DNA from: a virus
IMG/VR virus record: IMGVR_UViG_3300034200_001454
Coordinates: 1-64,000 of that record
Strand: one strand, 5' to 3'
DNA length: 64,000 bases
The notes under the pieces are model-generated. The model made no database searches and was not told the origin of the DNA. It saw only the letters and a list, made by a program, of their open reading frames with translations. The number at the start of each line of letters is the position of its first letter. Position 1 is the stretch's first letter. This document shows, piece after piece, positions 7,474 through 30,827 of this stretch. The position numbers were made by a program, and so were the translations under genes.

Positions 7474-9606
7474 ATGGAAGGCGAAGCAATTGATTTAGGG
7501 CATGCCACTGCTGGTGGCATTCGCGCGGACGGCCTTCAAAACGTGCTGATTGGCATGGGCACTGGTCGGGACAAGGCGCAATACACTAAAACCACTGCCA
7601 CTGTCTTCCTTGCCCAGGAAGAACTGGAAAATCTCTATGGCGAATGGCTTCCCCGCCGCATTGTTGATATCTACGCAGACCAGGCCACGAGAAAGGGCTT
7701 TAAAGTGTTGTTTGGTGGTGATGGTGTAAGAGCCGAGGAAGTACAAGGCATTGAGCAAACGATTGAAGACCTCTACATTCTCGAACACCTCAACCTCGCA
7801 GCCAAGAACTCCCGCCTTTACGGGGGTGCTTGTCTACTTCTTTTTATTGACGATGGGCGTCCCGCTTACATGCCTGTCGATAAACGCAACATACGTCGTA
7901 TCGAAGAAATTGAATGCCTTGATCGCTGGCAAATTGCCCCAGTTATCAACGAAGAAAACTTATACGACTATTCAAAAGCCACTTATTATCAGATCATCTC
8001 TGGAGATTTAATTAACGAGCCGACGCTTTCTTATATTCACAAAGATAGGATTTTGCGGTTTGATGGTGACTGGCTGCCTTATCGCGTGAGGCAGCGTAAC
8101 TATGGCTGGGGCATGAGCAGTTTGCAAACTGTTTATGACAGTTTCCGTCATTATTGGACTGGCCTCAATTCTGCTGCCACTCTCCTCACTGAGTTTGATA
8201 TTTTTGTTCATAAAGTGAGGGGCTTGGCGGCGATGCTTGCCGCTGGCAAAGAAAGCTCCATTCGTGATCGTTTGCAAGTGAACGACATGAGCAAGAGCAT
8301 TTATCGCGGCTATGCGATTGATGCCGAAAAAGAAGAGCTTGAATTTATTAGTCGTAATTTCGGGGGCATTGGAGAAATCCTTGAAAAGCTGCGCGTAGAT
8401 ATTATTGGCGCCAGCAAAATTCCTCACACTGTGTTATTTGGTGAAAGCCCGAGCGGACTTGGTTCTACGGGGCGTAGTGAAGAGCGTGATTTCGCCAAGA
8501 TGCTTTCTGATTATCAAAGCGTCCATTTCAAGCGTCCGATGAAGAAACTGATGGAATACATCATGCTGAGCAAGGAGGGTCCAACAAAAGGAGAAATGCC
8601 CGATTCATGGCGCATCTCCTTTAATCCATTGTTTGAGCTTAATGAGCGCGAAATGGCTGACGTGCGGGCTCGTGTGGCGGCTGTAGACGGCCGTTACATC
8701 CAGTTGGGTGTACTGAGTCCCAAGGAAGTGGCAGATGCCCGTTACGGCGGTTCTGAGTGGAGCATGGAACTCATGCTCGATCCGTCCGTTGTTCGCGAGC
8801 TGCCCCAAACTGCAGGTTCCACTCAAGGTGGGGGTGGTTCCACTCAATCTGGGGGTGGAAAGCTAGCAGTGTCGCCAGGCGGTCGCGATCCAATGAACGA
8901 AGAGAATGGCACGCTTCCCATGGATGGAAGCCGGGAAGTGGAAGACAGCCGGGAAGACAGCCGGGAAGACAGCCGGGAAGACAGCGCTGGTTTATATCTT
9001 CCGCGTGACTTAGAGAAAGTTCGTGGCGACGTAACGTTCACTGACAAAGAGCTGCATTCTCGTGCCGTAAGCGCCGCTAAGGCTAAGTTCAAAGTATGGC
9101 CATCTGCTTATGCAAGTGGCTATGTTGTGCAACAGTACAAGCAAATGTACAAGAAAAAGCATGGTTCATTGAGCGGGGCTTTTAAAAGCGATGAAGGTGA
9201 GTTGCACGCCGATGATCTTGATAAATGGTTCAAGGAAAAATGGGTGAGGATTGGCGCTAACGGCGAAATTCTTGGGCCTTGCGGTGCTCGTGAAGAAAAA
9301 GAAGGCAAGCCCAAATGCCTTCCTCAGGCAAAAGCTCAAGCGATGAGCAAAGAAGAGCGTCAAACCATTGTGCGTCGTAAGCGTGCAGCAGACCCCGATC
9401 CCGAGCGGAAAGGACCAGCAAAAATGGTCAGCAGCAAAACAGACGCAATTGAGCCATTGAAAACCAGCGGGCTCATTCTTGCTGATATCGACGAGGCTTC
9501 TCTGATTGATGAAGAAGACATTTCCGCTGCATTGACTCAATGGAAAGAAGAAGCGCCCGAGCGTTTCAAGGATATTCTGGAGGCAGAGGATGTCCAGCCT
9601 CAATGA
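7474..9606 (+). CDS. portal protein (DUF1073/HI1409 type) with a long C-terminal extension
   Basis: LY...RRIVD, SRLYGGA, IHKDRILRFDG, GWGMSSLQ, IPHTVLFGESPSGL; the extension carries WPSAYASG and KWFKEKWV...PKCLP modules. Confidence 0.88.
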   Translation: MEGEAIDLGHATAGGIRADGLQNVLIGMGTGRDKAQYTKTTATVFLAQEELENLYGEWLPRRIVDIYADQATRKGFKVLFGGDGVRAEEVQGIEQTIEDLYILEHLNLAAKNSRLYGGACLLLFIDDGRPAYMPVDKRNIRRIEEIECLDRWQIAPVINEENLYDYSKATYYQIISGDLINEPTLSYIHKDRILRFDGDWLPYRVRQRNYGWGMSSLQTVYDSFRHYWTGLNSAATLLTEFDIFVHKVRGLAAMLAAGKESSIRDRLQVNDMSKSIYRGYAIDAEKEELEFISRNFGGIGEILEKLRVDIIGASKIPHTVLFGESPSGLGSTGRSEERDFAKMLSDYQSVHFKRPMKKLMEYIMLSKEGPTKGEMPDSWRISFNPLFELNEREMADVRARVAAVDGRYIQLGVLSPKEVADARYGGSEWSMELMLDPSVVRELPQTAGSTQGGGGSTQSGGGKLAVSPGGRDPMNEENGTLPMDGSREVEDSREDSREDSREDSAGLYLPRDLEKVRGDVTFTDKELHSRAVSAAKAKFKVWPSAYASGYVVQQYKQMYKKKHGSLSGAFKSDEGELHADDLDKWFKEKWVRIGANGEILGPCGAREEKEGKPKCLPQAKAQAMSKEERQTIVRRKRAADPDPERKGPAKMVSSKTDAIEPLKTSGLILADIDEASLIDEEDISAALTQWKEEAPERFKDILEAEDVQPQ
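8941..8985 (+). repeat. 12-bp tandem repeat (GAAGACAGCCGG x3.75) encoding repeated EDSR in the portal linker
   Basis: perfect tandem copies visible in the sequence. Confidence 0.95.
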
Positions 9607-14031: not shown

Positions 14032-15255
14032 ATGGCACGTATTCTTTACTGCGGCGACGCGGCGGTGCAAACGGGGTTTGGGAGGGTAGCCGAATACTTG
14101 ATTCCGGCATTGTCGAGAGAGCACGAAGTTCATGTGATGGCAACAAACTGGCACGGAGACTCTTGTGATATGCAGCAGTATTGCAAGATGTATCCAGCCA
14201 TGGCGCATGGCCAGGATCCGTTTGGTTCTCATCGTATTTCGTCCGTTATTCAAGCCGTCAAGCCTGATCTGGTGTGGGTGACAAACGATATTTGGATTGC
14301 TATCAATTTATGGCAGCAGGCGAAGCCGCTCAAGGAGAAGATGGGCTTCAAATGGTTTGTCTACACTCCCATTGATTCTTACGGTCTATTTCCTGAGCTG
14401 AAAGCTCAAATGGAAGATTGGGACGGTCTTGCCACTTATACGCAATTCGCCGAAAAAGAACTGCGCTTGATGGGCTACGACAAGCCTATTGATATTATTG
14501 GCCATGGCACTGACTTCGAGAAATTCTTTCCGCTCGACAAACAACAATGCAGGAAAGAGCTTGGCGTGCCAGAAGACGTATTTATTGTCTTTAATGGCAA
14601 TAGGAATCAGCCACGAAAGCGTATTGACCTCACGCTCAAAGCATTTATCAAATTTGCCAAAGACAAAGACGATGCGCGTCTGTGGCTAAATATGGGCAGC
14701 AAAGACCTGGGATGGGAAGTCATTCCCTTGTTTAAGCGCATTGCTCGCGACGAAGGTTTCGATGCAACAAGCAAGCTTATCTTGACAAGCCCCCATTTCT
14801 CCGTAGACAATTGCCTCACTATTGAACAGCTCAACAAGGTGTATAACGCTGCTGACATTGGCATCAACACTTGCATTGGTGAAGGGTGGGGCCTAGTCAA
14901 TAGCGAGCATGGTTCCGTTGGTGTGGCGCAAGTTGTGCCTGACCATACGAGCTTGGCTGAGATCTTCGATGAGGTGCCTCGTATTCAATGCAATGCTTCC
15001 GAGACTGACCGCAATTATGGTCTTGAGCGTCTGCTTCCTGATCCCGAGAGTGCTGCAGAAATCTTGTCGTATTACTACGAAAACCGCAATGCCCTAAAGA
15101 AAGATGGGCAATGGTGTTACAAGCGTCTGCGCGAAGAACCGTTCACTTGGTCTTATATTCAGCAGCAGCTTCTTGACGTGGTGGAACGCACTCTTAATGT
15201 AAAACCGCCCGCTCCTGAATTTAAAGGTTTTGGCACTCCCGCAAAAATTGTTTGA
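14032..15255 (+). CDS. GT4 family glycosyltransferase
   Basis: TGFGRV, IGHGTD, NRNQPRKRID, YNAAD, GEGWGL..SE. Confidence 0.92.
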   Translation: MARILYCGDAAVQTGFGRVAEYLIPALSREHEVHVMATNWHGDSCDMQQYCKMYPAMAHGQDPFGSHRISSVIQAVKPDLVWVTNDIWIAINLWQQAKPLKEKMGFKWFVYTPIDSYGLFPELKAQMEDWDGLATYTQFAEKELRLMGYDKPIDIIGHGTDFEKFFPLDKQQCRKELGVPEDVFIVFNGNRNQPRKRIDLTLKAFIKFAKDKDDARLWLNMGSKDLGWEVIPLFKRIARDEGFDATSKLILTSPHFSVDNCLTIEQLNKVYNAADIGINTCIGEGWGLVNSEHGSVGVAQVVPDHTSLAEIFDEVPRIQCNASETDRNYGLERLLPDPESAAEILSYYYENRNALKKDGQWCYKRLREEPFTWSYIQQQLLDVVERTLNVKPPAPEFKGFGTPAKIV

Positions 15256-15257
15256 TC

Positions 15258-15974
15258 ATGCACGTCTCTCAAATCTTTCTGTCCAGTGATCCATCGGAAG
15301 AGCTTAGTCCTTTTCTGAAACATGCCACTGGCACCATTGATGCCTGCTTTCCAGATGCAAAGCATAAGATTTATAGCAACGAGGAACTACGTTCTTTCAT
15401 CGCTGATAACTATGGAGAAGAAGTGGTCTGGGCATATGACACGCTTAAGCCTTTTTCTTACAAAGCGGATCTCGGTCGATTCTGTTTGCTGAACAAGCTT
15501 GGTGGCTGGTACTTTGATATTGGCGTGAGGGCTTTTAATGCCGTGGATCTTGGACCACGAATTAAATTCTTGGCATTTCGTGATATTCAGCGCTTCAGTT
15601 ATACAAGCTGGGCATGTGCTACGACAGTGCTTTATTCCCAGCCAGATAACTCTGCATTGCAAACCGCAATTGAAATGATCGTAGCAAATTGCATTGAACA
15701 ATACTATGGCATCACTCCATTGTGCCCCACTGGTCCCACGCTGCTTGGGAAAGCTTTGGCAGCAAATGGCAGTCAAGCCGATTTTATCTATGGCGACTAC
15801 CTTGAGCTAACGCCTACACACGGCCAAAAGAATAGGGCCTTTGTGCTCCCCGATGGCACGATCATGGCGTGGAGTAAGCCTGCTGGCGGTGGCGACTTGA
15901 CTGGGCTTGGCGCCAAGGGCGTCAACAATTACAATGAGCTGTGGCAAGCCCGTAAGGTGTATGGAGATGGCTGA
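15258..15974 (+). CDS. GT32 (OCH1-like) glycosyltransferase
   Basis: YKADLGRFCLL..LGGWYFDI and PTGPTLLG. Confidence 0.85.
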   Translation: MHVSQIFLSSDPSEELSPFLKHATGTIDACFPDAKHKIYSNEELRSFIADNYGEEVVWAYDTLKPFSYKADLGRFCLLNKLGGWYFDIGVRAFNAVDLGPRIKFLAFRDIQRFSYTSWACATTVLYSQPDNSALQTAIEMIVANCIEQYYGITPLCPTGPTLLGKALAANGSQADFIYGDYLELTPTHGQKNRAFVLPDGTIMAWSKPAGGGDLTGLGAKGVNNYNELWQARKVYGDG

Positions 15975-16677
15975 CAGCACCATTTATGCGGTGTGCATCC
16001 CAGGAGAGAAGGTGCGGTACACGGCCAGGTCTCGCATTGTTCCCATCATGGGAGGAAGCTATGCGCTGAGCAAGGAAGAGCGCGAAAGTCTTCGCGCCGA
16101 AGGCTACGTTTTTGATGATGAAAATGCTGCGCTTTCTCCGTTCAACAATCGCTGGGGAGAGCTTTCTTGCGTTCATTGGATGATTAACAATGCAAAAGAG
16201 CCCAATCTTGGTAATGCGCAGTATCGACGCAATTGGCTAGAGCCGGAAGCTGAATGGTACTGCCCAGAAACTTTGTACGTACCAGAACCTGCTCAGTTTT
16301 CTTGCACGCTTGAGCAACAGTTCTATGGTGGTCATTCTGCTTTCAATGCGCCAGCAATCACTCGCAAATTAGCAGACGAGGGTAAATGGATTTTTACGCG
16401 CGAGGAGATTGATAAGATCTGGGCGCAATCTTCCTTTATTGGCTGCAATATGGCACGCGGGCCAAGGCACTCTTATTTGCGCTTGATGACAACATTGTTT
16501 GCTGGGCTTGTCCCAATTTGGCGTGAAAACAAAGAGCATTTTCTTTCCATTGAAGGCTACGACAAGCGTGCAATTGCTTTCATTGCTGAACGCTTAATTA
16601 CTGGCATGGTCTTATGTAGGGATAGAATCTTGCCGGGCGTAAAAATTGCTACGGCTCCGATAGGATTTATTAATTAA
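15961..16677 (+). CDS. DUF4422-like glycosyltransferase-associated protein
   Basis: PIMGG, DDE..LS..N..WGELS..HW, G..QYRR, CNM, RAIAFIAERL. Confidence 0.72.
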   Translation: MEMADSTIYAVCIPGEKVRYTARSRIVPIMGGSYALSKEERESLRAEGYVFDDENAALSPFNNRWGELSCVHWMINNAKEPNLGNAQYRRNWLEPEAEWYCPETLYVPEPAQFSCTLEQQFYGGHSAFNAPAITRKLADEGKWIFTREEIDKIWAQSSFIGCNMARGPRHSYLRLMTTLFAGLVPIWRENKEHFLSIEGYDKRAIAFIAERLITGMVLCRDRILPGVKIATAPIGFIN

Positions 16678-16695: not shown

Positions 16696-16968
16696 ATGAC
16701 CACGAAAGAAAAGCAGGCAAAAGTTGCGAAAGTGATGCGTGAATTTAAAGCTGGCACCTTGAAGGGCAGCGATAAAAAGCCTGTGACAAATCGCAAGCAA
16801 GCAATTGCCATTGCTCTTTCGGAAGCTGGCATGAGCCGTCAAGGGAAGAGTGATGCCTACTGGGATAATTATTTCATGACTCTCATTGGAGAAGAGGAGG
16901 AGGAAGAAGAGGAAGAAGAAGAGGGTATGGAAGAGATGGAGGACGGCTCCTGTGGAAAAAAGCGCTAA
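16696..16968 (+). CDS. DUF6496-like small basic domain with poly-Glu tail (zero-frame product of a frameshift gene)
   Basis: KVMREFKAGTLK...NRKQAIAIALSEAG followed by a run of 11 Glu. Confidence 0.75.
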   Translation: MTTKEKQAKVAKVMREFKAGTLKGSDKKPVTNRKQAIAIALSEAGMSRQGKSDAYWDNYFMTLIGEEEEEEEEEEEGMEEMEDGSCGKKR

Positions 16969-16994
16969 GGGGTGATGCCGAAAGCTTTGCCCCT
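16938..16994 (+). promoter_or_regulatory. programmed -1 ribosomal frameshift signal
   Basis: GGAGG 16938-16942; in-frame A_AAA_AAG 16956-16962; hairpin AGGGGTGA/TTGCCCCT 16968-16994. Confidence 0.8.
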
Positions 16995-17315
16995 CCTGCC
17001 GCCGTACGATCTGCTGCCCGTCGTGGCTTGGAACTACGCAAGAAACATGGGAAAGGAGGCTTGACGACGCAGGAAGCGGGCAAGCAGGGCATCGGAAGCG
17101 GCGTTGCTCGTGCAGGCGACTTAGCCGGTGGCAGTAAGATTAGTTTTGCCACAATCAAACGCATGTCTGCATTTTTCTCTCGCCATGAAAAGAATAAAAG
17201 TGGCGGCGAAGATGATGCCGGTTACATTGCTTGGCTTCTGTGGGGCGGCGATGCTGGTAGGGCATGGGCGAATCGCATTATTAAGATGGTGGAAAGTCGC
17301 AAGAAAGACTCATGA
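16962..17315 (+). CDS. conserved phage head-associated domain (AWLLWGGD type), -1 frame extension of the preceding gene
   Basis: open -1 frame ALRGDAESFAPPAAVRSAARRGLELRK...IAWLLWGGDAGRAWA; no ATG, GTG or TTG before 17028. Confidence 0.75.
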   Translation, partial: ALRGDAESFAPPAAVRSAARRGLELRKKHGKGGLTTQEAGKQGIGSGVARAGDLAGGSKISFATIKRMSAFFSRHEKNKSGGEDDAGYIAWLLWGGDAGRAWANRIIKMVESRKKDS

Positions 17316-17623
17316 GCGAATACGTACGTGTCATCGAGGAAGAGGATGAAGGTATTGGCGTAATGAAGGCTCTGGCTATTTTGTCGGCGCACGAACATCG
17401 CAATACTTCCCTCTGGCGACTTGTTGAGCAGCAGCATTTCAAGAATGGCCGCTTAGAGGAAACGCATATTTTCGTGGAGAATCACTACGAAAAGCCAGAT
17501 GAGCATTTTACGCCCATCAAAATGCTTGTCTTTGAGGCTGAAGCCATTGCGAAATCCTACGTGATGAGCGGCATCGAAGACCAGCTTCTCGACTTGCAGG
17601 ACGATGATGATGACGAGGATTGA
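17312..17623 (+). CDS. hypothetical acidic protein
   Basis: ATGA overlap; 103 aa. Confidence 0.7.
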   Translation: MSEYVRVIEEEDEGIGVMKALAILSAHEHRNTSLWRLVEQQHFKNGRLEETHIFVENHYEKPDEHFTPIKMLVFEAEAIAKSYVMSGIEDQLLDLQDDDDDED

Positions 17624-17939: not shown

Positions 17940-18004
17940 AAGAATTTATTCCGTTTTGCATAAGCTCATAAAGTATAACATTTGCTTCTTGATAAAGTAT
18001 GAAT

Positions 18005-19198
18005 ATGAGCACCATTTCCTGCCGATACGATTTCTCTCCTATTGAGAAATACGAACTCACGCCGGAAGGTTATCTTCGGGCATGGGCTTCTATCGCACGC
18101 ACTGGCATCCAACACTACACAGATAGTGATGGTTCCATTCGTCGCGAATATCGTCCTGAAACAGAAGTGGCGTCTCCCGATAGTCTTGCTTCGTTTGCGG
18201 GCAAGGCCATCACTTCAGAACATCCGCCTGTGCTTCTCGATTCCGAGAATACTAAAGACTATCAAGTGGGCTTTAGTGGCACTGAAGTGGTGTACGACAA
18301 TGGTTTCGTCAAAGCAGTGATGACCATCACTGACGAAGACACCATCAAGCGCATCATGAAAGGCGATGCTCGTGAGGTAAGCGCGGGCTATAGGGTGAAT
18401 TATGATCCTACGCCTGGCGTTACAGAAAACGGCGAACATTACGATGGCGTCCAAAAGGAAATCATCGGCAATCACATCGCTGTTGTCCGCCGGGGCCGCG
18501 CCGGCCCGCAAGTGAAGCTCCATCTTGATAGGCAAGATGCTGCCGATCCATCTTTATTTAAAACAACTGAGGAACGTCTTATGACTGCCAAAGTCGTATT
18601 CGACGGCGCCGAGTTCGAGGTGAGTGAGGGCGTTGCTCTTGCTATCACCAAAGAACGGGAAGATGGCCGTATGTCCTACGAGGACATGAAGAAAAAGTAC
18701 GACGAACTGCAAGCCTCCGCTGCTTCCATGAAAGAAGAAATGGATGCAATGGAAAAAGAAATGAAGGGCAAGTGCGATTCCGCTGAGGGTCGCGCTGATG
18801 CTCTGGCTGAGCAGATCGAAGAACTGAAGACCGAACTGGCTGCTGCTCAAGAAATCAACCTTGATTCCATGGTTGAAGAGCGTGTGGCTCTCATCGAGAA
18901 GGCCAAGCCTGTTCTCGATAGTGCCTATGCATTCGCTGGCAAAACTGCTCGCGAAGTGATGGTTGATTCCATCAAGGCAGTGCGTGGTGATGAGCTTGAT
19001 CTTTCTGAGAAGAGCGATGACTACGTGCAGGCAATGTTCGACACTCTCTCTGAGGGTCGTTCTGACTCTGCCACCACTGATGAGCTGCGTAAAGCCGTAG
19101 CTTCCATTGCTTCTCCTGTTTCTGCGCCCTCTGCCTACATGGACATGCTGCAGAATGCTTGGAAGAAGCCCCTTTCCATCTCCAAGGAGGCTAAGTAA
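18005..19198 (+). CDS. DUF2213 prohead protease/scaffold
   Basis: TPEGYL, IARTGIQ.Y, YRPETEV, T.EHP, EVSAGY, NHIAVV..GRAG; coiled-coil C-terminal half. Confidence 0.92.
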   Translation: MSTISCRYDFSPIEKYELTPEGYLRAWASIARTGIQHYTDSDGSIRREYRPETEVASPDSLASFAGKAITSEHPPVLLDSENTKDYQVGFSGTEVVYDNGFVKAVMTITDEDTIKRIMKGDAREVSAGYRVNYDPTPGVTENGEHYDGVQKEIIGNHIAVVRRGRAGPQVKLHLDRQDAADPSLFKTTEERLMTAKVVFDGAEFEVSEGVALAITKEREDGRMSYEDMKKKYDELQASAASMKEEMDAMEKEMKGKCDSAEGRADALAEQIEELKTELAAAQEINLDSMVEERVALIEKAKPVLDSAYAFAGKTAREVMVDSIKAVRGDELDLSEKSDDYVQAMFDTLSEGRSDSATTDELRKAVASIASPVSAPSAYMDMLQNAWKKPLSISKEAK

Positions 19199-19776: not shown

Positions 19777-20685
19777 ATGTCTGAATTCCGTATGGATGAC
19801 GCGGGTCTGTTCCTTGAGCGTCAGCTTGAGTACATCCGCCCCCAAGTGTTTGAAGTGCAGTATGCGGATATTAAATATCCGACCATTCTGCCTGTTACTA
19901 GCGAAGCTGGTCCCGGTGCCCAGACCTTCACCTATCGCATCATGGACTCCACTGGTGAGTTCAAGCTGATTGCTGATGCTGCTGATGATCTGCCTCGTGC
20001 CGACATCAGCCAAGTCGAGAAGAGCATCAACATCCGCTCTTTCGGTGGTTCTTTCGGTTATACCGTACAAGAACTGCGTGCTGCTCAAATGGCCAACATC
20101 GCTCTGGAGCAGCGTCGTGCTGCTGCTGTGCGCCGTGCCTATGAGGAGAAAGTGGAAGAAGTGGCTCTGTTCGGTGAGAGCACCGTGGGCCTGTCTGGTT
20201 TCTTCAACAACTCCACCGTGGATGTTGTTGCTGCTGATAAGTGGTTCACCGGTAGCGGCACCACTGCTCAGGAAATGCTTGAGCTGCTGAACTATGGCGT
20301 GACTGCCATTATCAATGGTTCCAAGATGAAGGAGCAGCCCGACACCATCCTCATGTCCTATGAGGACTATAACAAGGTGAGCACCACTCGCAACTCCGAC
20401 TCTTCGGACGTGACCGTGCTGGAATACTTCCTGCGCACCAACCCCTACATCCGTAACGTTGAGCCTATCAACCAACTGGATGCCGATAACAGCGTGCTGA
20501 ATACCAACCGCATGGTTGTGTACAAGCGTGATCCCGAGAAAGTGCAACTGCACATTCCTCAGCCGCTGGAACTCTTCCCGCCCCAACAGCGCGGCCTTGA
20601 GTTCATTGTTCCCGCTCATGCTCGTGTGGGTGGCGTGGCTCTGTACTATCCCAAGAGCGTTATCTACGTTCAAGCTTCTGCCTGA
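19777..20685 (+). CDS. major capsid protein (DUF2184, encapsulin-like HK97 fold)
   Basis: FLERQLEYI, DDLPRAD, YTVQELRAAQ, RVGGVALYYP; strongly biased codon usage. Confidence 0.93.
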   Translation: MSEFRMDDAGLFLERQLEYIRPQVFEVQYADIKYPTILPVTSEAGPGAQTFTYRIMDSTGEFKLIADAADDLPRADISQVEKSINIRSFGGSFGYTVQELRAAQMANIALEQRRAAAVRRAYEEKVEEVALFGESTVGLSGFFNNSTVDVVAADKWFTGSGTTAQEMLELLNYGVTAIINGSKMKEQPDTILMSYEDYNKVSTTRNSDSSDVTVLEYFLRTNPYIRNVEPINQLDADNSVLNTNRMVVYKRDPEKVQLHIPQPLELFPPQQRGLEFIVPAHARVGGVALYYPKSVIYVQASA

Positions 20686-23391: not shown

Positions 23392-23645
23392 ATATTGACT
23401 ATCTGTGGAGCGAAGACCGCTCTGTTCATGCCATTAATAATCAGCTTGACGGAGCGTCCATGGAGGTGGGCATCCTCTGTCTTATTTCTTGTCGAGACGA
23501 GACCATTAGAATAAGCAACGAAAATCATTCATTGCTTGTTGAAGTGCCTAAAGAATTTCGCTCTAGCAGTGAAAGGGTGAAGGTGTTCAACGCATTGTTA
23601 AACGTTCTTGATCATGAGCAAATACAGCTTCCTTCTGCAGACTAA
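23388..23645 (+). CDS. hypothetical protein
   Basis: ATGA overlap, 85 aa. Confidence 0.55.
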   Translation: MNIDYLWSEDRSVHAINNQLDGASMEVGILCLISCRDETIRISNENHSLLVEVPKEFRSSSERVKVFNALLNVLDHEQIQLPSAD

Positions 23646-24150
23646 AGCCGAAGATTATTTTGAGCTTCTTCCTGAAATTCGCATGAAGAAATATGGTGGC
23701 TGGCTTGTCGCTGAAGCAATTGAACAGGAAGAAATTAGTAAGTTGCAAAGCCAAGCTACTATTAGGGCTGTGCAACTGGCTAAGCGCATTGCCACTGCAA
23801 AGGACATTCCGCTGGACGAAGCTTTTAGTTTGCTTCAGGGAGGCGGTGGTTCCATTACTGAAGCTGAACTTCTCTCGGAATATACCGAGGAAACACTGAG
23901 CATGATCACCAGTGGCTCTTCAGTGGAGAGCACCAACGCCCGCATGGTTACTGCCTTTATTCGCTCTCGCGGTCAAGGTTTGATTGATGGCGAATGGCAA
24001 GATCTTGCGGACTGGGAATTGGATGATACTAAAAACCTTCCCCGTAAAGCCATTGCAAAAGTGGTTGAGTTTATTGCTGAAGAGCAAAATGCTGAGACGC
24101 AGGAGGCAATGGCAGCAAAAAAAGCGACGAAGAGGAATGGTCCTCAGTAG
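23614..24150 (+). CDS. tail assembly chaperone (gpG-like)
   Basis: upstream of the tape measure gene; slippery A_AAA_AAA at 24117-24123. Confidence 0.78.
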   Translation: MSKYSFLLQTKAEDYFELLPEIRMKKYGGWLVAEAIEQEEISKLQSQATIRAVQLAKRIATAKDIPLDEAFSLLQGGGGSITEAELLSEYTEETLSMITSGSSVESTNARMVTAFIRSRGQGLIDGEWQDLADWELDDTKNLPRKAIAKVVEFIAEEQNAETQEAMAAKKATKRNGPQ

Positions 24151-24590
24151 CAGAAATGCTGGAAGCGCGAGCGCGTAACCAGCTTAAAAATTTGACGGAT
24201 TGGAACGAAATCTATTTTCGGCTTTCGGCATCAGATTTTAATGACAGGCGATGGCATGCAGATCAATTTGGTTTGCAGCCATTGTCTGATATTAAGCGTG
24301 CGTTGAAATACCTTGATAAACATGACGTAGCAAAATATAATGTCCAGAGCGTTGCCATCGCCAAGCTTGGCACGATGGCGGCTGGCATGATGGCGGGACG
24401 CAAGTCCAAGGTAAAGCCAGAAGATTTCTTGCCATTTGATACCAAAGCAATTAAGAAAGATACAGGCGTTACGGATGCTAGTTTGATCGTCTTCCAGCGC
24501 TTAATGAAGACAAGGAAGATGGACGGAAGAGTTATTGCTTTACTGGCGGATGATTTGAAAGCTTTTGCTGGGCGTAATCAGGATCAATGA
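24123..24590 (+). CDS. tail assembly chaperone -1 frameshift extension (gpGT-like)
   Basis: -1 frame open from the slippery site (SDEEEWSSVAEMLEAR...) into ORF 24156..24590. Confidence 0.75.
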   Translation, partial: SDEEEWSSVAEMLEARARNQLKNLTDWNEIYFRLSASDFNDRRWHADQFGLQPLSDIKRALKYLDKHDVAKYNVQSVAIAKLGTMAAGMMAGRKSKVKPEDFLPFDTKAIKKDTGVTDASLIVFQRLMKTRKMDGRVIALLADDLKAFAGRNQDQ

Positions 24591-24623
24591 TTATAGAATG
24601 AAGACAATAACGAGCAGTTGAAG

Positions 24624-27600
24624 ATGGCAGGTCAAAATGCTGACATGACCCTTAAGGTGGGTCTTGACCTTAATTTCTTCAGGCAGGAATTACAGAAAGC
24701 ATCGTCTTCTCTTGCAGGGCAGCCGATTGATATTAATGTTCGTTTTAAGAGGAATCAGATTACTAACGAATTGCGACTGCTCAGCAATTCGCTTAGCAGG
24801 AAAACATACGATGTTGAAGTAAAAAGCACAAGCCTCGAAGCCCTGCTAAAACAAGTAAATACTTTCAAGCAAACGCTCAAAAATCTCAAGGATGAAAAGA
24901 TTGAGCTGAGCATTAATGCTTCGGCCAACATTGAAAAATTTAGCAAAGAAAAAATCCGCAAGATACGGGCGCAAATTCGCAGCGATATTGTGTCTGGGGG
25001 AGCTGGAGAAATTCAGCTTCCGACAAAACTTGCTGCGCCAAGCACACCTGCATTTATTAAGGATGTAGCCAAAAAAGTAAAAGAGCAAATTAGCGCATCA
25101 TCTGCAGAAGGCGGTATTCCCATCGCGACAAAGCTTGCATTACCCGGCATTACGGACACGCTAAAAGCTCTGCAAAAAAATCTAAACCAAAAAGATCCAC
25201 TGCGAGTAAAAGTTAGTACAACGCCGTCAATCAAAAAGGCGGATGTAACCGCATTTAAAACTGCCGTCAGTGAAAAATTCAAGAACATCACCGTAAAGGT
25301 TAGGGCTGAGCTTGACACCGCCACTACTGTCGCGCAAGTCGCTACTGCCGGACCTTCTCGTACTTTCTTGCAAGAGCTGAAAGACTTAGACAAGAGCGCT
25401 CTTCAAAATATTTATAAAGCCGCTGGCGAAGATGCGCTACTGGCGTTTGATGAAGGAATTATCAATAACAAAGCAAAAATGGCGCAAGCCTTAAGCAAGG
25501 CGGGGGAAGACGCAAGCGCCGGGTTTATTGCCGCACTTGAAAATAAAAAGAGCGCTTTGTTTAAGGCTGCAGGCGAATACGGCGGCGCCTTGCTCAGCGG
25601 TTTGAAAAAAACTCTCAAAATACAATCTCCTTCGAGGGAGATGTTTGATATTGGCGATGATGCGGGCAAAGGTTTTGAACTCGGCCTGCTGAAAGCAATG
25701 GAGTTAGCGGAGAAGTCCGCTACCAATCAAATGCGGCGGATGTTAGACCGTCTCGCTCGAATGGCGCTCATGATGGGAGGCATGAGTGCGGCGGCAATTA
25801 ACAAACAAGTTGCGCAATCAAGGGCCCTGCCCAGTGTTAATTTTCCAGCGACTGTACCACCTAGTCAGAGCATTCCTATTGGGCCATCTTCTACTGGCAG
25901 GACTCTTCCTGCTAGTCGTGCTGCCGCTGGATTGATTGGAGCTGTACAGGCTCCTGTAGGCTTACTACCAAGCGCAACAAGACAGAGTGGACTTACTACT
26001 GGCCTTGAAGCCTTAATTCAATCACTCGTTTCCCAAAGTCGCGGGAGGGGGCCGGAAGGTCCTAGTTCCATTGTTTCCATGGAGACAGGATTTATTCCTG
26101 CGATGCGCGAACGCTTTGCGAAAGCTGCGGAACGCTATTTGTTTGGCGTTGAAACGCAAGTAATGGATTTGTTCGACGCTGCGTTGAGACAAGTGGAATC
26201 TGCAGTTGATTTGCATATCGCAAAGATTCAAGGGCAGATTTCGCAAAGAATGAGAAACGCTTTTTCCGTAGTGGATCTTGGCGTGCAGGAACGACCAATG
26301 CTTCCTGGTGCCGCTACAGGACAAGAGCCTCTAATGCTGCCTTCTGCAGGCGGAACAACACCGCAAGGACAGATGCGTTTCAACGCAGTTCGCACTGGCG
26401 AAGTTATTCCTTCTACACCATTGATGCTTCCGCCCGCTGGCGGCACCACGCCTCGCAGGGAAATGCGTTTCAATGCAGTGACATCTACTGGTGGACGAGG
26501 CGGCGGTTATGTCCCTCCCGGCGGTTTCCCGGAAGAGGGCATGCTTGGCATGCTTGGTGGGCGCCAAGGTCCAGCTACGTTTATTGGTGCTGGCAGTCAA
26601 ATGGTGAAACTTAAAGCTAATTTAGATGCCACTGTTCAATCAGTAGAGCAGTTCCGCAAGTCTCAGATACCGCTAGCAGGTACCATGCAAGAGCTTGCCG
26701 GAGAATTTGGAAACGCGGCTCAGCAAGTATTGCTTTATGGAACGGCTTACAAAGCGCTTGCATTCTTTGTGGGCCTTCCTGGTCAGGCTTTGAATGCAGC
26801 AAAAAGCTTACAAACATTTAACAACCAATTAAATGCAATCACTGGAAGTTCCGAGAATGCAGATCGGGCATTTGCTTTTGTCGATAATTTAGCTGCTCGT
26901 TTTAATGTGCCACTGGAAAGTGCTCGTCAGGGATTCGTAAAACTTTACGCTTCCATGGCTCCCGCTGGTTTTAGTAGCGGTGAAATTGAAAATCTATTCA
27001 GTGGAATTAGCAAAGCATCTGCAACTCTTGGACTTAGTTCCGATAAAGTTGATCGTGTTACTTATGCCTTCTCTCAAATGGCCAGTAAAGGTCAATTGAT
27101 GAGCGAGGAAGTTAGCGGCCAATTGGGCGACGTAATCCCAGGCGCGTTGTCAATCATGGCAGAAGCTGCTCGCATGGATATTGCCACGTTCAAGAAAGCG
27201 ATGGAAGACGGCGTATTCGTTGGAGAAACCTTCAAGCAGGTAATGAGCAATGTGCCTATTGTTTTGGAAAATCGTTTTGGGAAAGGAGCCGCTAACGCCG
27301 CGAAAACTCTTCAGGGTTCGATGAACGCTCTTGCTATTTCAACGCAAAAGTTTTATGAATCTTTTGAACCCATTGTTTCTATGGGCGCAGCTTCAATTTT
27401 CCCCATCATTGCTGTTGCCATTAATGATGCAACGCAAGCAGTACAGGCATTCACTGCTGCTATGCAGGGCAATACTACTCCCGCTCAAATGCTAGAAGGC
27501 AATGCTGCTCAAATTTATGGCGTATTGCAGCAATTAAGGGAAATCTTTGTAGCCGTCGCAGGAGTTATTCAAGGTATAGCTCCAACATTGATGATCGTCG

Positions 27601-30600
27601 GAAAAACATTTTTAACAACAGCGGAATACGTTGCAAAGCTTATTAATACACCAATCGGAGGTTTCCTTGCTGATCTTGCTGTCAAAGCCGGCATTGCGCT
27701 AATCGCTGTTCAGTTGCTTACAAAAACTGGAATAGTTGGATTGATTTCGCAGTTAATTTTGCTTCAAAGAAGCACTGCAGCGGCAGGCGGCGGTCTTCTC
27801 GCTTTTGCTGGTAATTTAACAAAAACAGGTACGGCTGCTAAACTTTTCAGACTTGCAATAACTGGACTAATTGGCGCTGGCATTTTGTTTGGCATCGAAG
27901 CTTTGGTCAATGCCATTGGCAGAATGGCCAATCGTTTGTCTGATGCAAGGAAAAATGCAATTGCTGCTCGCGATGCAATTAAATCAATGACTGGAGCCGA
28001 ACTTGGAGAGCAAATAATTGTTCAGCAAAACAAACTTCAAGCTTTAAGCAGAACTCAAAAAGCTGGAGGCAGGATAGGTTCTGAAAAAGATCGTCAAGCT
28101 TTAGAGCAAATGGGGATGAAGGTTTCGGCCACAGGCGGGACTTTTGTTGGAGGGCAGTTGATTGGCGGCAAGTATGCAGTTGACAAAAACTTGATTGAGT
28201 CTTTCCGAATTAGGGAGAAAGAGCAGCTAAAAGCAATTCAAGACCAAAGAAAATCGCTTTACGATACCACTCCTCTCCCGTTGAATGAGGTAGAGCTTGG
28301 CGCGGGGACAGGGGACGAAAAAGCAACCAAGAAAGCTCTCAATGACGCAGAGCAATTGGCGAAGCAAGAACAGCAGCGCCGCATTGAGCTTGCAAATTTT
28401 GCGAATGATATGCAAAAGATTGAATTTGACCGCGACGTACAGTTAAGTGACGCAGCTTTTGAGCACAAGAAAAGTCTTATTGATACACTCAATGAATATG
28501 AACTTTCTGGCCTCAATGATATACAGGCTCGCCAAGTTAAATTTGCCCAAGACCTTAAGAAGATTCAATTGAATGCAGTTGATGCTGTCAGGAAGGCATT
28601 GCAAAAATCTCAAGAAGCGCAATTGAACGTAGTCGCTGCGCAACGCACTGCACAAGCTGCCGGAGGAGGAGAGGGTCCATCTGTGGCCGGATTCACTCCA
28701 GCCGAATTATCCACTGCGACAGCCGCAGCGAGCAAGTTTACAGGTATCGCCAATATGTGCTCGGAATCCGTAAAAGCTTTTTACAAGAGCTTGGGAATTT
28801 CGCTGCCCGGCGTGACGGCATGGGCAGATACGGTGCGCAATGCCGGTACAACAATGAGGGATTGGTCCAAATTGACGCCCGGCGACATTGTTGCTACTGG
28901 CAGGCCTGGGGACACTCCTCACGTTGGTGTTTATACTGGCGGACAAAATGTATTCCACCAAAGCAGGAGCAGGGGATTGAAGGCTGGCAATTATCCAGAC
29001 CTTGATTACTTTAAGCAGGGTGGATACTTTGTTCGTCCCAATGGCGGAATGAAGCAATCATCTGCTTCTTTCTCCATGGATACAAAGGTGCAGAAAGAAA
29101 GCTTTGATTTGCAAAAACAGCTTGCTCAATCCACGAATCAGATTGCTTTGCAAAGTTTGGAAATCGAAAGAGCAATTCAACTAGCAAAAGAACAAACAGC
29201 GGCAACAATTAAAGCAAATATTGGCAACATTTTCCCTGTTGAGAAACAAAAGCTTGATCTTCAGTTGCAGCAAATGCGGAATAATTTAATTTTACAAGGC
29301 ATGCCACAAGAGTATATTGACTACGAAGAACAGCGTGCATTGAAGACGGAAGAGGCGGCTGCAGCTTCGTCGAAGATGAAGGACGCGATTAACGAAGCAA
29401 AAGTAGAGCTAAGTAAATACAATACCGAGGCGGCTAAGGGAATAGATTTGGCGCCAGAACAAAAAGCTCGCATGAAGATCCTTGAGGATCAAATTGCAGC
29501 GAATGAAGAAGGGCTTAAAAAATTAACGGACGCCCAGCGACAATCAAACATTGCTTCTCTTGAAAGTGCAATTGCGACGATGAAGCAAGCTGACGCGCTT
29601 AAGGCATTGCAAGAAAGATCAGAACGCATTAATCAATCCGTGGAGGGTGTCACTGGCACTTACAAAGATATGTTCAAGGAGATTGCCAAAGGCGGCGATT
29701 CAGTAGAAGCGCTTAAAAAAGCGCAAGAAGCTTTGGCCGATCAAGCGTTGACTATGTTCTTTGACTTTGCAATGCAGCCAGTTGAAAAGTTCTTCAAGGA
29801 TCAGTTGGGAGCAATTTTTGGAGTGCCAAACGAGGAGCAGCAAAGGCAGAAAACTATTTCTGCAATGGAAGCCCAATTAAAGGAACTACAAGCGCAGAAA
29901 CAAATACAAACAGACATTAAAAACAATACTGACAGAATGGTTGGCGCCGCTCCCGGTAATCAACAGGCTCAAGCTCTTCCTGGAGCGATGCCTTCAGCCA
30001 TTGTCCAAGGCATCGACGTGCCAATTGATCAGATGCCCGCAGGAATGCAATTTGAGGAGTCAATCGGTGCTGCTACTGAAAACCTGAACACTGCTACAGA
30101 AGGTGTCGCCGAAACTGTCAATAAAACGGCAGAAAAAACAAAAGAGGCTAACATTGATTGGCAAAAAGCACTGGGTGCAACGGTACAGGGTATTGGTGTC
30201 GCCGCAGGCTCAATTATGGGCATTGCTGCTGGCATTAACCAAACGAAAGAAGGTGGTTTTGCTAACACTCTTGGTGGCATTGGCATGATAATGAGCAGTG
30301 TCGGTGGTCTATTAGGTGGATTTAGTAATATTGCAGGCATGTTTAGAGGTGGAGGCGGAGCATCTGCCATTGTTCAAGGCGTAGACATTCCAGCATCAGC
30401 ATTGCCTCCCGGTATGGCATTCGCCAATGGTGGTATTGCCCATGGTGGCTTTATTCCCTTCCGTGCCTTCGCCAATGGAGGAGCTGTCTCTGGCCCCACT
30501 CTTGGCCTTGTAGGCGAAGGACGTTACAACGAAGCCATTGTTCCTCTTCCCGATGGCAGAAGCATTCCCGTACAGCTTGGCGGCAAGTCTGCTCGCGATC

Positions 30601-30827
30601 TCATGGGAGGCAATGCTCCTGGCATGCCTGCCGCTCCTTCTCTTAATATGAAATTCGAGACCACAAAGATTAATGGCGTAGAGTATGTAAGCAGGGAGCA
30701 GTTAGAAATGGCTATGGCAGAAACACGTCGTGCTTCCATTTCTGGAGGGGCAAAACAAGGCATGGCAATGACTTTAGATAAAATTAAACAAAGCCCCTCC
30801 ACTCGTTCTCGCATTGGTATGCGCTAA
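24624..30827 (+). CDS. tape measure protein with an embedded NlpC/P60-like peptidase domain
   Basis: AFSQMASKGQLMSEE..GQLGD tape-measure motif; C-terminal FANGG...LVGEG..EAIVPL; internal MCSESV...PGDIV...HVGVY. Confidence 0.93.
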   Translation: MAGQNADMTLKVGLDLNFFRQELQKASSSLAGQPIDINVRFKRNQITNELRLLSNSLSRKTYDVEVKSTSLEALLKQVNTFKQTLKNLKDEKIELSINASANIEKFSKEKIRKIRAQIRSDIVSGGAGEIQLPTKLAAPSTPAFIKDVAKKVKEQISASSAEGGIPIATKLALPGITDTLKALQKNLNQKDPLRVKVSTTPSIKKADVTAFKTAVSEKFKNITVKVRAELDTATTVAQVATAGPSRTFLQELKDLDKSALQNIYKAAGEDALLAFDEGIINNKAKMAQALSKAGEDASAGFIAALENKKSALFKAAGEYGGALLSGLKKTLKIQSPSREMFDIGDDAGKGFELGLLKAMELAEKSATNQMRRMLDRLARMALMMGGMSAAAINKQVAQSRALPSVNFPATVPPSQSIPIGPSSTGRTLPASRAAAGLIGAVQAPVGLLPSATRQSGLTTGLEALIQSLVSQSRGRGPEGPSSIVSMETGFIPAMRERFAKAAERYLFGVETQVMDLFDAALRQVESAVDLHIAKIQGQISQRMRNAFSVVDLGVQERPMLPGAATGQEPLMLPSAGGTTPQGQMRFNAVRTGEVIPSTPLMLPPAGGTTPRREMRFNAVTSTGGRGGGYVPPGGFPEEGMLGMLGGRQGPATFIGAGSQMVKLKANLDATVQSVEQFRKSQIPLAGTMQELAGEFGNAAQQVLLYGTAYKALAFFVGLPGQALNAAKSLQTFNNQLNAITGSSENADRAFAFVDNLAARFNVPLESARQGFVKLYASMAPAGFSSGEIENLFSGISKASATLGLSSDKVDRVTYAFSQMASKGQLMSEEVSGQLGDVIPGALSIMAEAARMDIATFKKAMEDGVFVGETFKQVMSNVPIVLENRFGKGAANAAKTLQGSMNALAISTQKFYESFEPIVSMGAASIFPIIAVAINDATQAVQAFTAAMQGNTTPAQMLEGNAAQIYGVLQQLREIFVAVAGVIQGIAPTLMIVGKTFLTTAEYVAKLINTPIGGFLADLAVKAGIALIAVQLLTKTGIVGLISQLILLQRSTAAAGGGLLAFAGNLTKTGTAAKLFRLAITGLIGAGILFGIEALVNAIGRMANRLSDARKNAIAARDAIKSMTGAELGEQIIVQQNKLQALSRTQKAGGRIGSEKDRQALEQMGMKVSATGGTFVGGQLIGGKYAVDKNLIESFRIREKEQLKAIQDQRKSLYDTTPLPLNEVELGAGTGDEKATKKALNDAEQLAKQEQQRRIELANFANDMQKIEFDRDVQLSDAAFEHKKSLIDTLNEYELSGLNDIQARQVKFAQDLKKIQLNAVDAVRKALQKSQEAQLNVVAAQRTAQAAGGGEGPSVAGFTPAELSTATAAASKFTGIANMCSESVKAFYKSLGISLPGVTAWADTVRNAGTTMRDWSKLTPGDIVATGRPGDTPHVGVYTGGQNVFHQSRSRGLKAGNYPDLDYFKQGGYFVRPNGGMKQSSASFSMDTKVQKESFDLQKQLAQSTNQIALQSLEIERAIQLAKEQTAATIKANIGNIFPVEKQKLDLQLQQMRNNLILQGMPQEYIDYEEQRALKTEEAAAASSKMKDAINEAKVELSKYNTEAAKGIDLAPEQKARMKILEDQIAANEEGLKKLTDAQRQSNIASLESAIATMKQADALKALQERSERINQSVEGVTGTYKDMFKEIAKGGDSVEALKKAQEALADQALTMFFDFAMQPVEKFFKDQLGAIFGVPNEEQQRQKTISAMEAQLKELQAQKQIQTDIKNNTDRMVGAAPGNQQAQALPGAMPSAIVQGIDVPIDQMPAGMQFEESIGAATENLNTATEGVAETVNKTAEKTKEANIDWQKALGATVQGIGVAAGSIMGIAAGINQTKEGGFANTLGGIGMIMSSVGGLLGGFSNIAGMFRGGGGASAIVQGVDIPASALPPGMAFANGGIAHGGFIPFRAFANGGAVSGPTLGLVGEGRYNEAIVPLPDGRSIPVQLGGKSARDLMGGNAPGMPAAPSLNMKFETTKINGVEYVSREQLEMAMAETRRASISGGAKQGMAMTLDKIKQSPSTRSRIGMR

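Follow-up and report, generated by a model that had tools for sequence, protein, structure and literature searches.

Comparative evidence for a probable programmed -1 ribosomal frameshift joining a DUF6496 protein to a widespread helical domain in the head module of S-CBS4-like phages

The DNA analysed here, referred to as the window, is the stretch of 64,000 nucleotides (nt) at positions 1 to 64,000 of the IMG/VR virus record IMGVR_UViG_3300034200_001454. A short gene in its head module, encoding a DUF6496 protein, ends at the heptamer A_AAA_AAG (16956-16962), which is probably a genuine site of programmed -1 ribosomal frameshifting; a probability of about 85% is given to this reading on comparative grounds. 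As originally predicted, such a shift would yield a 90-amino-acid (aa) product together with a fusion protein of about 206 aa, and the comparative tests are supportive of this. They comprise the anatomy of the site, its conservation among relatives, covariation in a downstream hairpin, a coding signal in the -1 frame that begins at the slip site and the natural occurrence of the same two modules in one open reading frame (ORF), all of which are directly observed. The recoding mechanism itself is already known, but the gene family is new to such recoding and the site was previously unannotated.

All parts of the element lie on the plus strand. The 0-frame ORF (16696-16968) starts with ATG at 16696 and encodes 90 aa, made up of a DUF6496 module, an acidic linker and the ending ...GSCGKKR before the stop TAA. 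The DUF6496 likeness noticed in the original prediction was borne out by a match to PF20106 over residues 4-44 (16705-16827), which scored above threshold (E 1.7e-9, 37.5-38.4 bits against a gathering cut-off of 24). The acidic, poly-Glu linker (16891-16944) varies in length among relatives and is predicted to be disordered in a natural fused homologue. A Shine-Dalgarno (SD)-like GGAGG is found at 16938-16942, 13 nt 5' of the heptamer, and the 0 frame ends with GGA (16954-16956) AAA AAG CGC TAA (16966-16968), placing the heptamer in the X_XXY_YYZ phase and the stop one codon 3' of it. The last base of the stop is also the first base of the stem of a hairpin (16968-16994), which is separated from the heptamer by a spacer of 5 nt and consists of an 8-bp stem (AGGGGUGA/UUGCCCCU), a bulge, two inner pairs forming a 2-bp stem and a 5-nt loop. 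The -1 frame has no stop from 16869 until the TGA at 17313-17315 and reads ...KK-ALRGDAESFAPPAAVRSAARRGLELRK... across the junction; its first ATG, GTG or TTG is the TTG at 17028. From 16962 to 17315 it comprises 117 codons and the TGA, encoding the helical 'AWLLWGGD' module, which is matched by phrog_2859 (8e-17). Every detail of this anatomy in the original prediction, from the end of the ORF, the heptamer, the GGAGG and the hairpin to the extent of the -1 frame and its first start, was correct.

More than 420 relatives of the gene were found in IMG/VR, and the comparative set was made up of 91 distinct gene versions, 61 of them split between two frames and 30 being single in-frame ORFs. Aligning homologous loci, as the original prediction had proposed, showed conservation of the heptamer and its phase, of the -1 offset and of the hairpin. 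An in-phase heptamer was present in all 61 split versions, as A_AAA_AAG in 56 and as G_GGA_AAG in 5, and the use of two canonical heptamers at the same position argues for selection for slipperiness and not for Lys-Lys coding. The 0-frame stop was positioned one codon past the heptamer in 58 of the 61 and directly past it in 2. In the closest isolate, Synechococcus siphovirus S-CBS4, which has 68.5% nucleotide identity with the window over the matched 56% of the locus, the corresponding sequence is AGA AAA AAG GGC TAA followed by a hairpin, the layout of in-phase A_AAA_AAG, one codon and TAA being as in the window; the two halves are annotated there as separate genes, gp018 and gp019. By pattern scan the full signature was detected in at least 117 IMG/VR contigs. 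With the phase of the heptamer, the placement of the stop and the hairpin all recurring in 61 versions and in these contigs, the arrangement is more than chance would give.

Contigs from four independent lake metagenome runs displayed strain substitutions and zero indels at the site. The substitutions (seen in lake runs X9, X11 and X12) fall at 16967, 16973, 16976 and 16979 and co-occur within lake samples; those at 16967 (A>G, changing TAA to TGA) and 16973 (GGGGU to GGGGC) correspond to the stronger-hairpin alleles seen in IMG/VR. In one relative, L030 (2995-3046), CGA replaces the 0-frame stop and the next stop follows 43 nt on, making the unshifted product 13 codons longer; its heptamer and hairpin are intact. 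The 0-frame ORF is extended in some relatives, in which DUF6496 is preceded either by a Cys-rich domain (MECP...CSNCEHYI...) some 140 aa long or by about 400 aa of N-terminal sequence (L075:2257-2998; proteins P0273, P0275-P0281 and P0284). At the heptamer, P0277, P0278 and P0284 still end with ...GSCGKKR or ...SSCGKKR, so that the same junction serves different N-terminal modules.

The hairpin is conserved as a structure. Its 5' arm takes in one or two bases from the end of the 0-frame stop and starts 4-5 nt from the heptamer. Over the 40 distinct junctions, standard pairs were found in 90.4% of the cells, compared with 54-64% when the partners were slid by 1-3 columns. The hairpin contains one covarying pair of the A-U/C-G kind, between columns 18 and 34, which in the 40 junctions is AU in 19, CG in 15, UG in 3, GU in 1 and unpaired in 2. 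In 99 versions the same pair is CG in 43, AT in 36, TG in 7, GT in 1 and unpaired in 12, and A is never opposite G. Column 18 is the synonymous third position of a Gly codon and column 34 toggles the next-but-four codon between Ala and Ser; as the two columns belong to different codons, the covariation connects sites of separate codons. The window hairpin has two G-U pairs, and these are G-C in S-CBS4. An Rfam search of 16850-17100 returned only two sub-threshold, snoRNA-like chance matches and no frameshift-element family.

The coding signal in the -1 frame starts at the slip site. In the 14 codons just 3' of the heptamer, the positional entropy in the -1 frame of the split versions was 0.31/0.18/0.90, variation thus being concentrated in third positions, and the remainder of the C-terminal domain (C-domain) gave a matching pattern. 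Over the first 22 codons the window and S-CBS4 differ by 11 synonymous and 3 non-synonymous changes when read in the -1 frame, as against 2 and 13 in the 0 frame. Both halves of the gene are under purifying selection.

The in-frame relatives serve as a natural control. All 30 encode DUF6496, an acidic linker and then the C-domain in a single ORF, with no heptamer at the junction, and they encode the same R[GD]D[AS]ESF[SA]PP peptide as the split versions. The junction Arg codon is varied among them and is AGG in 61 of 61 split versions. When the same 36 nt were folded, the mean energy was -6.8 kcal/mol for in-frame versions (range -15.6 to -0.1) versus -17.8 kcal/mol for split versions (-20.9 to -11.1), a difference with a Mann-Whitney p of 3e-14, uncorrected for phylogeny. 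A search with a fused ORF in a collection of 5.8 billion proteins gave 1004 matches, the best 120 being clusters of 172-218 aa that cover 91-100% of the query; together with the single in-frame ORFs these show that the fusion protein is real and common. Homologues consisting of in-frame single ORFs had been named in the original prediction as pointing to a sequence error, and literally about one third of the relatives are of this kind; with no heptamer and only a degraded hairpin, these relatives support the reality of the fusion protein and do not show the split to be an error. Close relatives therefore constitute a natural experiment, in which the same peptide is encoded either with a heptamer and a strong hairpin for frameshifting or in a fused gene with no heptamer and a decayed hairpin. 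This contrast argues that the stimulator is under selection only where it is used, and the recoding signals appear to be retained only where the shift is needed.

Three in-frame variants lie near the split type: L046/L114 (one contig), P0084 and P0274. L046 has an A7 run (…AGA AAA AAA GTA GAT AGG…) and a fairly strong hairpin of -14.0 kcal/mol. P0274, one of the matches to the fused ORF and available at protein level only, reads ...GSCGKK-T-LRGDAESF, which is nearly identical to the junction predicted for the -1 product of the window, ...GSCGKK-ALRGDAESF; a pattern scan for its guessed DNA junction gave no match. All three may be recent fusions or assembly variants.

Several observations weigh against programmed frameshifting as set out above, or against the force of the evidence for it. 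The tree shows only about 5 changes between the split and the fused state, and the contrast in hairpin energy therefore rests on few independent events; phylogenetically independent pairs relating the split or fused state to a strong hairpin numbered 3-6, too few for significance. The 61-nt fold of the window was not more stable than dinucleotide shuffles (z = -0.79), and with the window hairpin being energetically unexceptional, the evidence for it is comparative and not energetic. With 4-5 nt, the spacer is among the shorter ones of known bacterial cassettes. A host tRNA-Lys(CUU), if present, would lower slippage on AAG; the tRNA genes encoded in the window are tRNA-Met and tRNA-Leu only. 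Finally, the SD-like GGAGG is not a conserved element in the alignment, the motif occurring at 13 nt in only 20 of the 61 unique split loci and no SD-like motif at all being present in 14, S-CBS4 among them. The dnaX/IS911 architecture that had been assigned to the site consequently holds for the conserved heptamer and hairpin only, although the upstream GGAGG may help in some lineages.

Three other explanations were weighed, and even jointly they are unlikely. The C-domain might be made separately, either from an internal or non-canonical start (CTG at 16950, the CTG/TGA overlap of relatives or TTG at 17028) or by termination-reinitiation, the heptamer being incidental Lys-Lys coding. A CTG overlapping the TGA (C-TGA) is seen in many relatives, the S-CBS4 annotation puts a GTG start 42 nt downstream and other lineages have stand-alone C-domain proteins of about 115-134 aa. 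The window, S-CBS4 and a dozen other versions, however, have CTA and not CTG at the overlap, and the earliest canonical -1-frame start among split versions lies anywhere from -93 to +141 nt of the junction, none being conserved, while the 14 codons 5' of the earliest shared candidate start are under purifying selection in the -1 frame. In seven loci (L007, L012, L027, L030, L032, L035 and L068) a -1-frame stop abuts the heptamer (AAA AAA); the frame can there be changed only within the heptamer, and the CTG at 16950, suggested in the original prediction as a possible independent start, therefore cannot be a general one. Two kinds of heptamer at one place, both gone in the fused forms, and the third of the relatives that make both modules as one chain also speak against separate expression, which is considered improbable.

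Somewhat less probable again is transcriptional slippage, by which RNA polymerase would add or drop an A in the A6 run and give a subset of in-frame mRNAs. Besides the A6 run at the site, there are A8 runs in L027, L032 and L068, and L046 and P0084 are in-frame with one extra A. For polymerase slippage to be productive, a run of at least about 8-9 identical bases is usually required, and the five versions with G_GGA_AAG have only three A's, a run too short for it; moreover, the covarying hairpin 4-5 nt downstream and the fixed phase of the heptamer are ribosomal features that would be superfluous for a polymerase. That the A run contains a single-base error of sequencing or assembly (an artefact), or that the gene was broken recently (decay), is very improbable and effectively refuted. 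Homopolymer runs are error-prone and about one third of the homologues are in-frame, but the same frame layout was found in 61 distinct versions from a large number of metagenomes as well as in the genome of an isolate, and the signature recurs in at least 117 contigs. The lake runs, free of indels at the site, and the purifying selection on both halves point the same way, and the in-frame forms lack the heptamer region and have different linkers instead of differing by one A.

Under programmed frameshifting, most ribosomes on the DUF6496 gene would stop at the TAA at 16966 and release the 90-aa protein. A fraction would pause over A_AAA_AAG with the hairpin 16968-16994 at the mRNA entrance, 5 nt downstream, and the P- and A-site tRNA-Lys would slip back one base in tandem. 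Shifted translation would then run in the -1 frame to 17315 and give a 206-aa protein, residues 1-89 followed by ALRGDAESF..., in which DUF6496 and the acidic linker are joined to the 117-residue helical module. The shift on the ribosome, its efficiency and the role of either module are inferred here. The purpose would presumably be to fix how much DUF6496 protein is free relative to the amount attached to a head-associated module, a ratio that would be set at 100% fusion in the fused-ORF lineages. The stop of the -1 frame overlaps the ATG of the next gene (ATGA, 17312-17315), so that translation of that gene may be coupled to frameshifted ribosomes; the gene is encoded on the plus strand at 17312-17623, and its product of 103 aa has no Pfam or PHROG match. 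The same ATGA overlap is also present in S-CBS4.

As a tentative and rather doubtful extension, the frameshift might be a dosing device for capsid cargo. The helical module would act as a capsid-targeting or ligand-binding unit, only the shifted DUF6496 would be loaded into heads or activated, and fused lineages would load all of it. If this were true, recoding would tune the stoichiometry of virion cargo, and the module would define a phage domain family that is both new and very widespread and has a specific role in packaging or as an effector.

The C-domain matched 3,739 clusters at 50% identity, 1,632 of them at E <= 1e-10, and in proteins of 115-1,588 aa it occupied the N-terminus, the C-terminus or the middle. 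The partners seen among 90 representatives included DUF5824 (12), 2H/LigT phosphoesterases (12 + 5), XkdF-type prohead protease (8), InPase (4) and portal (2), with single cases of capsid, ddrB-ParB, Mu protease I, DUF2213, MuF and Acb1-like domains. PHROG assignments of partners included several head-maturation-protease families, DNA methyltransferase, DarB-like protein, minor head protein and portal. DUF6496 was likewise found in long phage proteins with InPase, ParB, NUDIX and PF18760. The partner set of both modules, as judged from these matches, is that of the phage 'polyvalent proteins', for which packaging in the head and injection have been predicted (Iyer et al. 2017, PMC5512222). The 117-residue module recurs very commonly and promiscuously in 'polyvalent' and head-associated cargo proteins of phages, with nucleotide-processing and anti-defence-type enzymes among its fusion partners. 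A Pfam search of the -1-frame domain gave no match even at E 10, and no Pfam 'LPD'-type assignment was obtained for either module. In the literature no paper mentioning DUF6496 was found, and none tying S-CBS4 or cyanophages to such a frameshift; nor was a proteome of S-CBS4 found.

The invariant residues of the C-domain are Arg, His and Trp together with Gly-rich loops. Its AlphaFold model is confident and has eight helices, with a predicted local distance difference test (pLDDT) score of 91 and a predicted template modelling (pTM) score of 0.82. Foldseek of the model against the PDB gave nothing at E <= 0.001, and a VIA-align wide search gave a best Z of 4.6 with generic helical bundles only; no fold assignment follows, and these PDB nulls are no proof of a new fold. 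The model matched many viral predicted structures, including prohead proteases, portals, ParB and HAD proteins. The model of a natural fused homologue has two independently folded parts separated by a low-confidence acidic linker (pLDDT about 50; pTM 0.54). In Limnohabitans phage DC31 (L002:1329-2123) the C-domain is the N-terminal half of a protein of about 260 aa whose C-terminal half is Peptidase_S78_2 (XkdF), and this protease gene directly precedes the scaffold, cement and capsid genes. Vibrio phage 382E49-1 (L164:4998-5774) has the C-domain as the N-terminal half of another protein of about 260 aa, at the syntenic protease position of the head module; it is annotated as 'ParB N-terminal domain-containing' and has no Pfam match.

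The site may be set beside known systems of recoding. In Escherichia coli dnaX, A_AAA_AAG is read by tRNA-Lys with a stem-loop a few nt downstream, and two products of one gene are made at a fixed ratio. The window shares the identical heptamer and a downstream stem-loop; in dnaX the shifted ribosome soon meets a stop, which shortens the protein, whereas the stop would here be bypassed and a 117-residue domain added, and the upstream SD-like stimulator of dnaX has no conserved counterpart. The orfA-orfAB arrangement of the IS3 family (IS911, IS150) is similar in having A_AAA_AAG near the end of a short upstream ORF, a close 0-frame stop, a 3' structure and a fusion that adds a functional domain. 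Neither a transposase nor a mobile element is involved in the present case, the modules being those of phage head-module and polyvalent proteins. With the tail assembly chaperone G/GT the site has in common a phage structural-module gene extended C-terminally by -1 slippage, and the lambda-type G_GGA_AAG of G/GT is the heptamer used by the five relatives at the position of the window's site. The proteins are unrelated, and the window site is in the head module, between a glycosyltransferase cassette and the protease/scaffold gene and 7 kb upstream of the tape measure gene, whereas the G/GT pair lies immediately upstream of it. Lambda G/GT is not known to have a strong conserved hairpin such as that of the window site.

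Frameshifting in a head gene, which had been called unusual in the original prediction, is less so than claimed. Frameshifts are known in capsid genes, as in T7 gene 10A/10B, and Ig-like domains are appended to structural proteins by frameshifting. The window's gene resembles these in a minority, C-terminally extended head-region protein that would be made by -1 recoding; unlike them, the extended protein is not the major capsid protein and the added domain is helical and not Ig-like. Both modules are shared with the long multidomain polyvalent proteins of phages (PMC5512222), where they occur with InPase, ddrB-ParB, 2H phosphoesterase, MuF, portal, ART-PolyVal-type (PF18760) and NUDIX domains. 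In the window's gene, by contrast, there are two modules only, joined by recoding instead of a continuous ORF, and the term 'frameshift' is absent from that paper.

A recoding site that was unannotated is nevertheless abundant in freshwater and marine S-CBS4-like phages. The annotation of gp018 and gp019 in S-CBS4 should be changed to a single recoded gene, as should that of many metagenomic gene calls, and the 'orphan' C-terminal ORFs lack a start of their own. The site also draws attention to an uncharacterised, very common domain, all-helical and found in head proteases, portals and polyvalent proteins, for the study of which a culturable phage offers a small, tractable two-module protein.

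The source record is a 77.5-kb IMG/VR virus rated complete and cyanophage-like, and the stretch is contained in 20 sequencing runs, nearly all of them labelled lake-water metagenome and none listed as RNA. The portal protein (Phage_portal_3; 7474-9606) is extended at its C-terminus by about 250 residues, which include a DUF5872 match (residues 523-622) and several small PHROG modules; neither half of the recoded protein matched this extension by BLASTP. After the portal follow a phrog_24776 protein, an HNH endonuclease, the glycosyltransferase cassette, the DUF6496 gene with its -1 extension, the 103-aa gene, the DUF2213 protease/scaffold (17999-19198), a cement protein, the major capsid protein (19777-20685) and, further on, the tape measure gene (24618-30827), identified by PHROG tape measure matches. 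The cassette (14032-16677), directly upstream of the recoded gene in the head module, consists of three co-oriented glycosyltransferase-type genes, GT4/Glycos_transf_1, DXD Gly_transf_sug-like and DUF4422-like, and a glycosyltransferase group I gene occupies the equivalent place in S-CBS4. A second site of the -1 type with a canonical look, A_AAA_AAA at 24117-24123, is in phase near the end of the ORF 23608-24150. Neither this ORF nor the ORF 24156-24590 has a PHROG match, and the -1 frame from the heptamer continues into the latter, as in the G/GT layout of tail assembly chaperones, immediately ahead of the tape measure gene.

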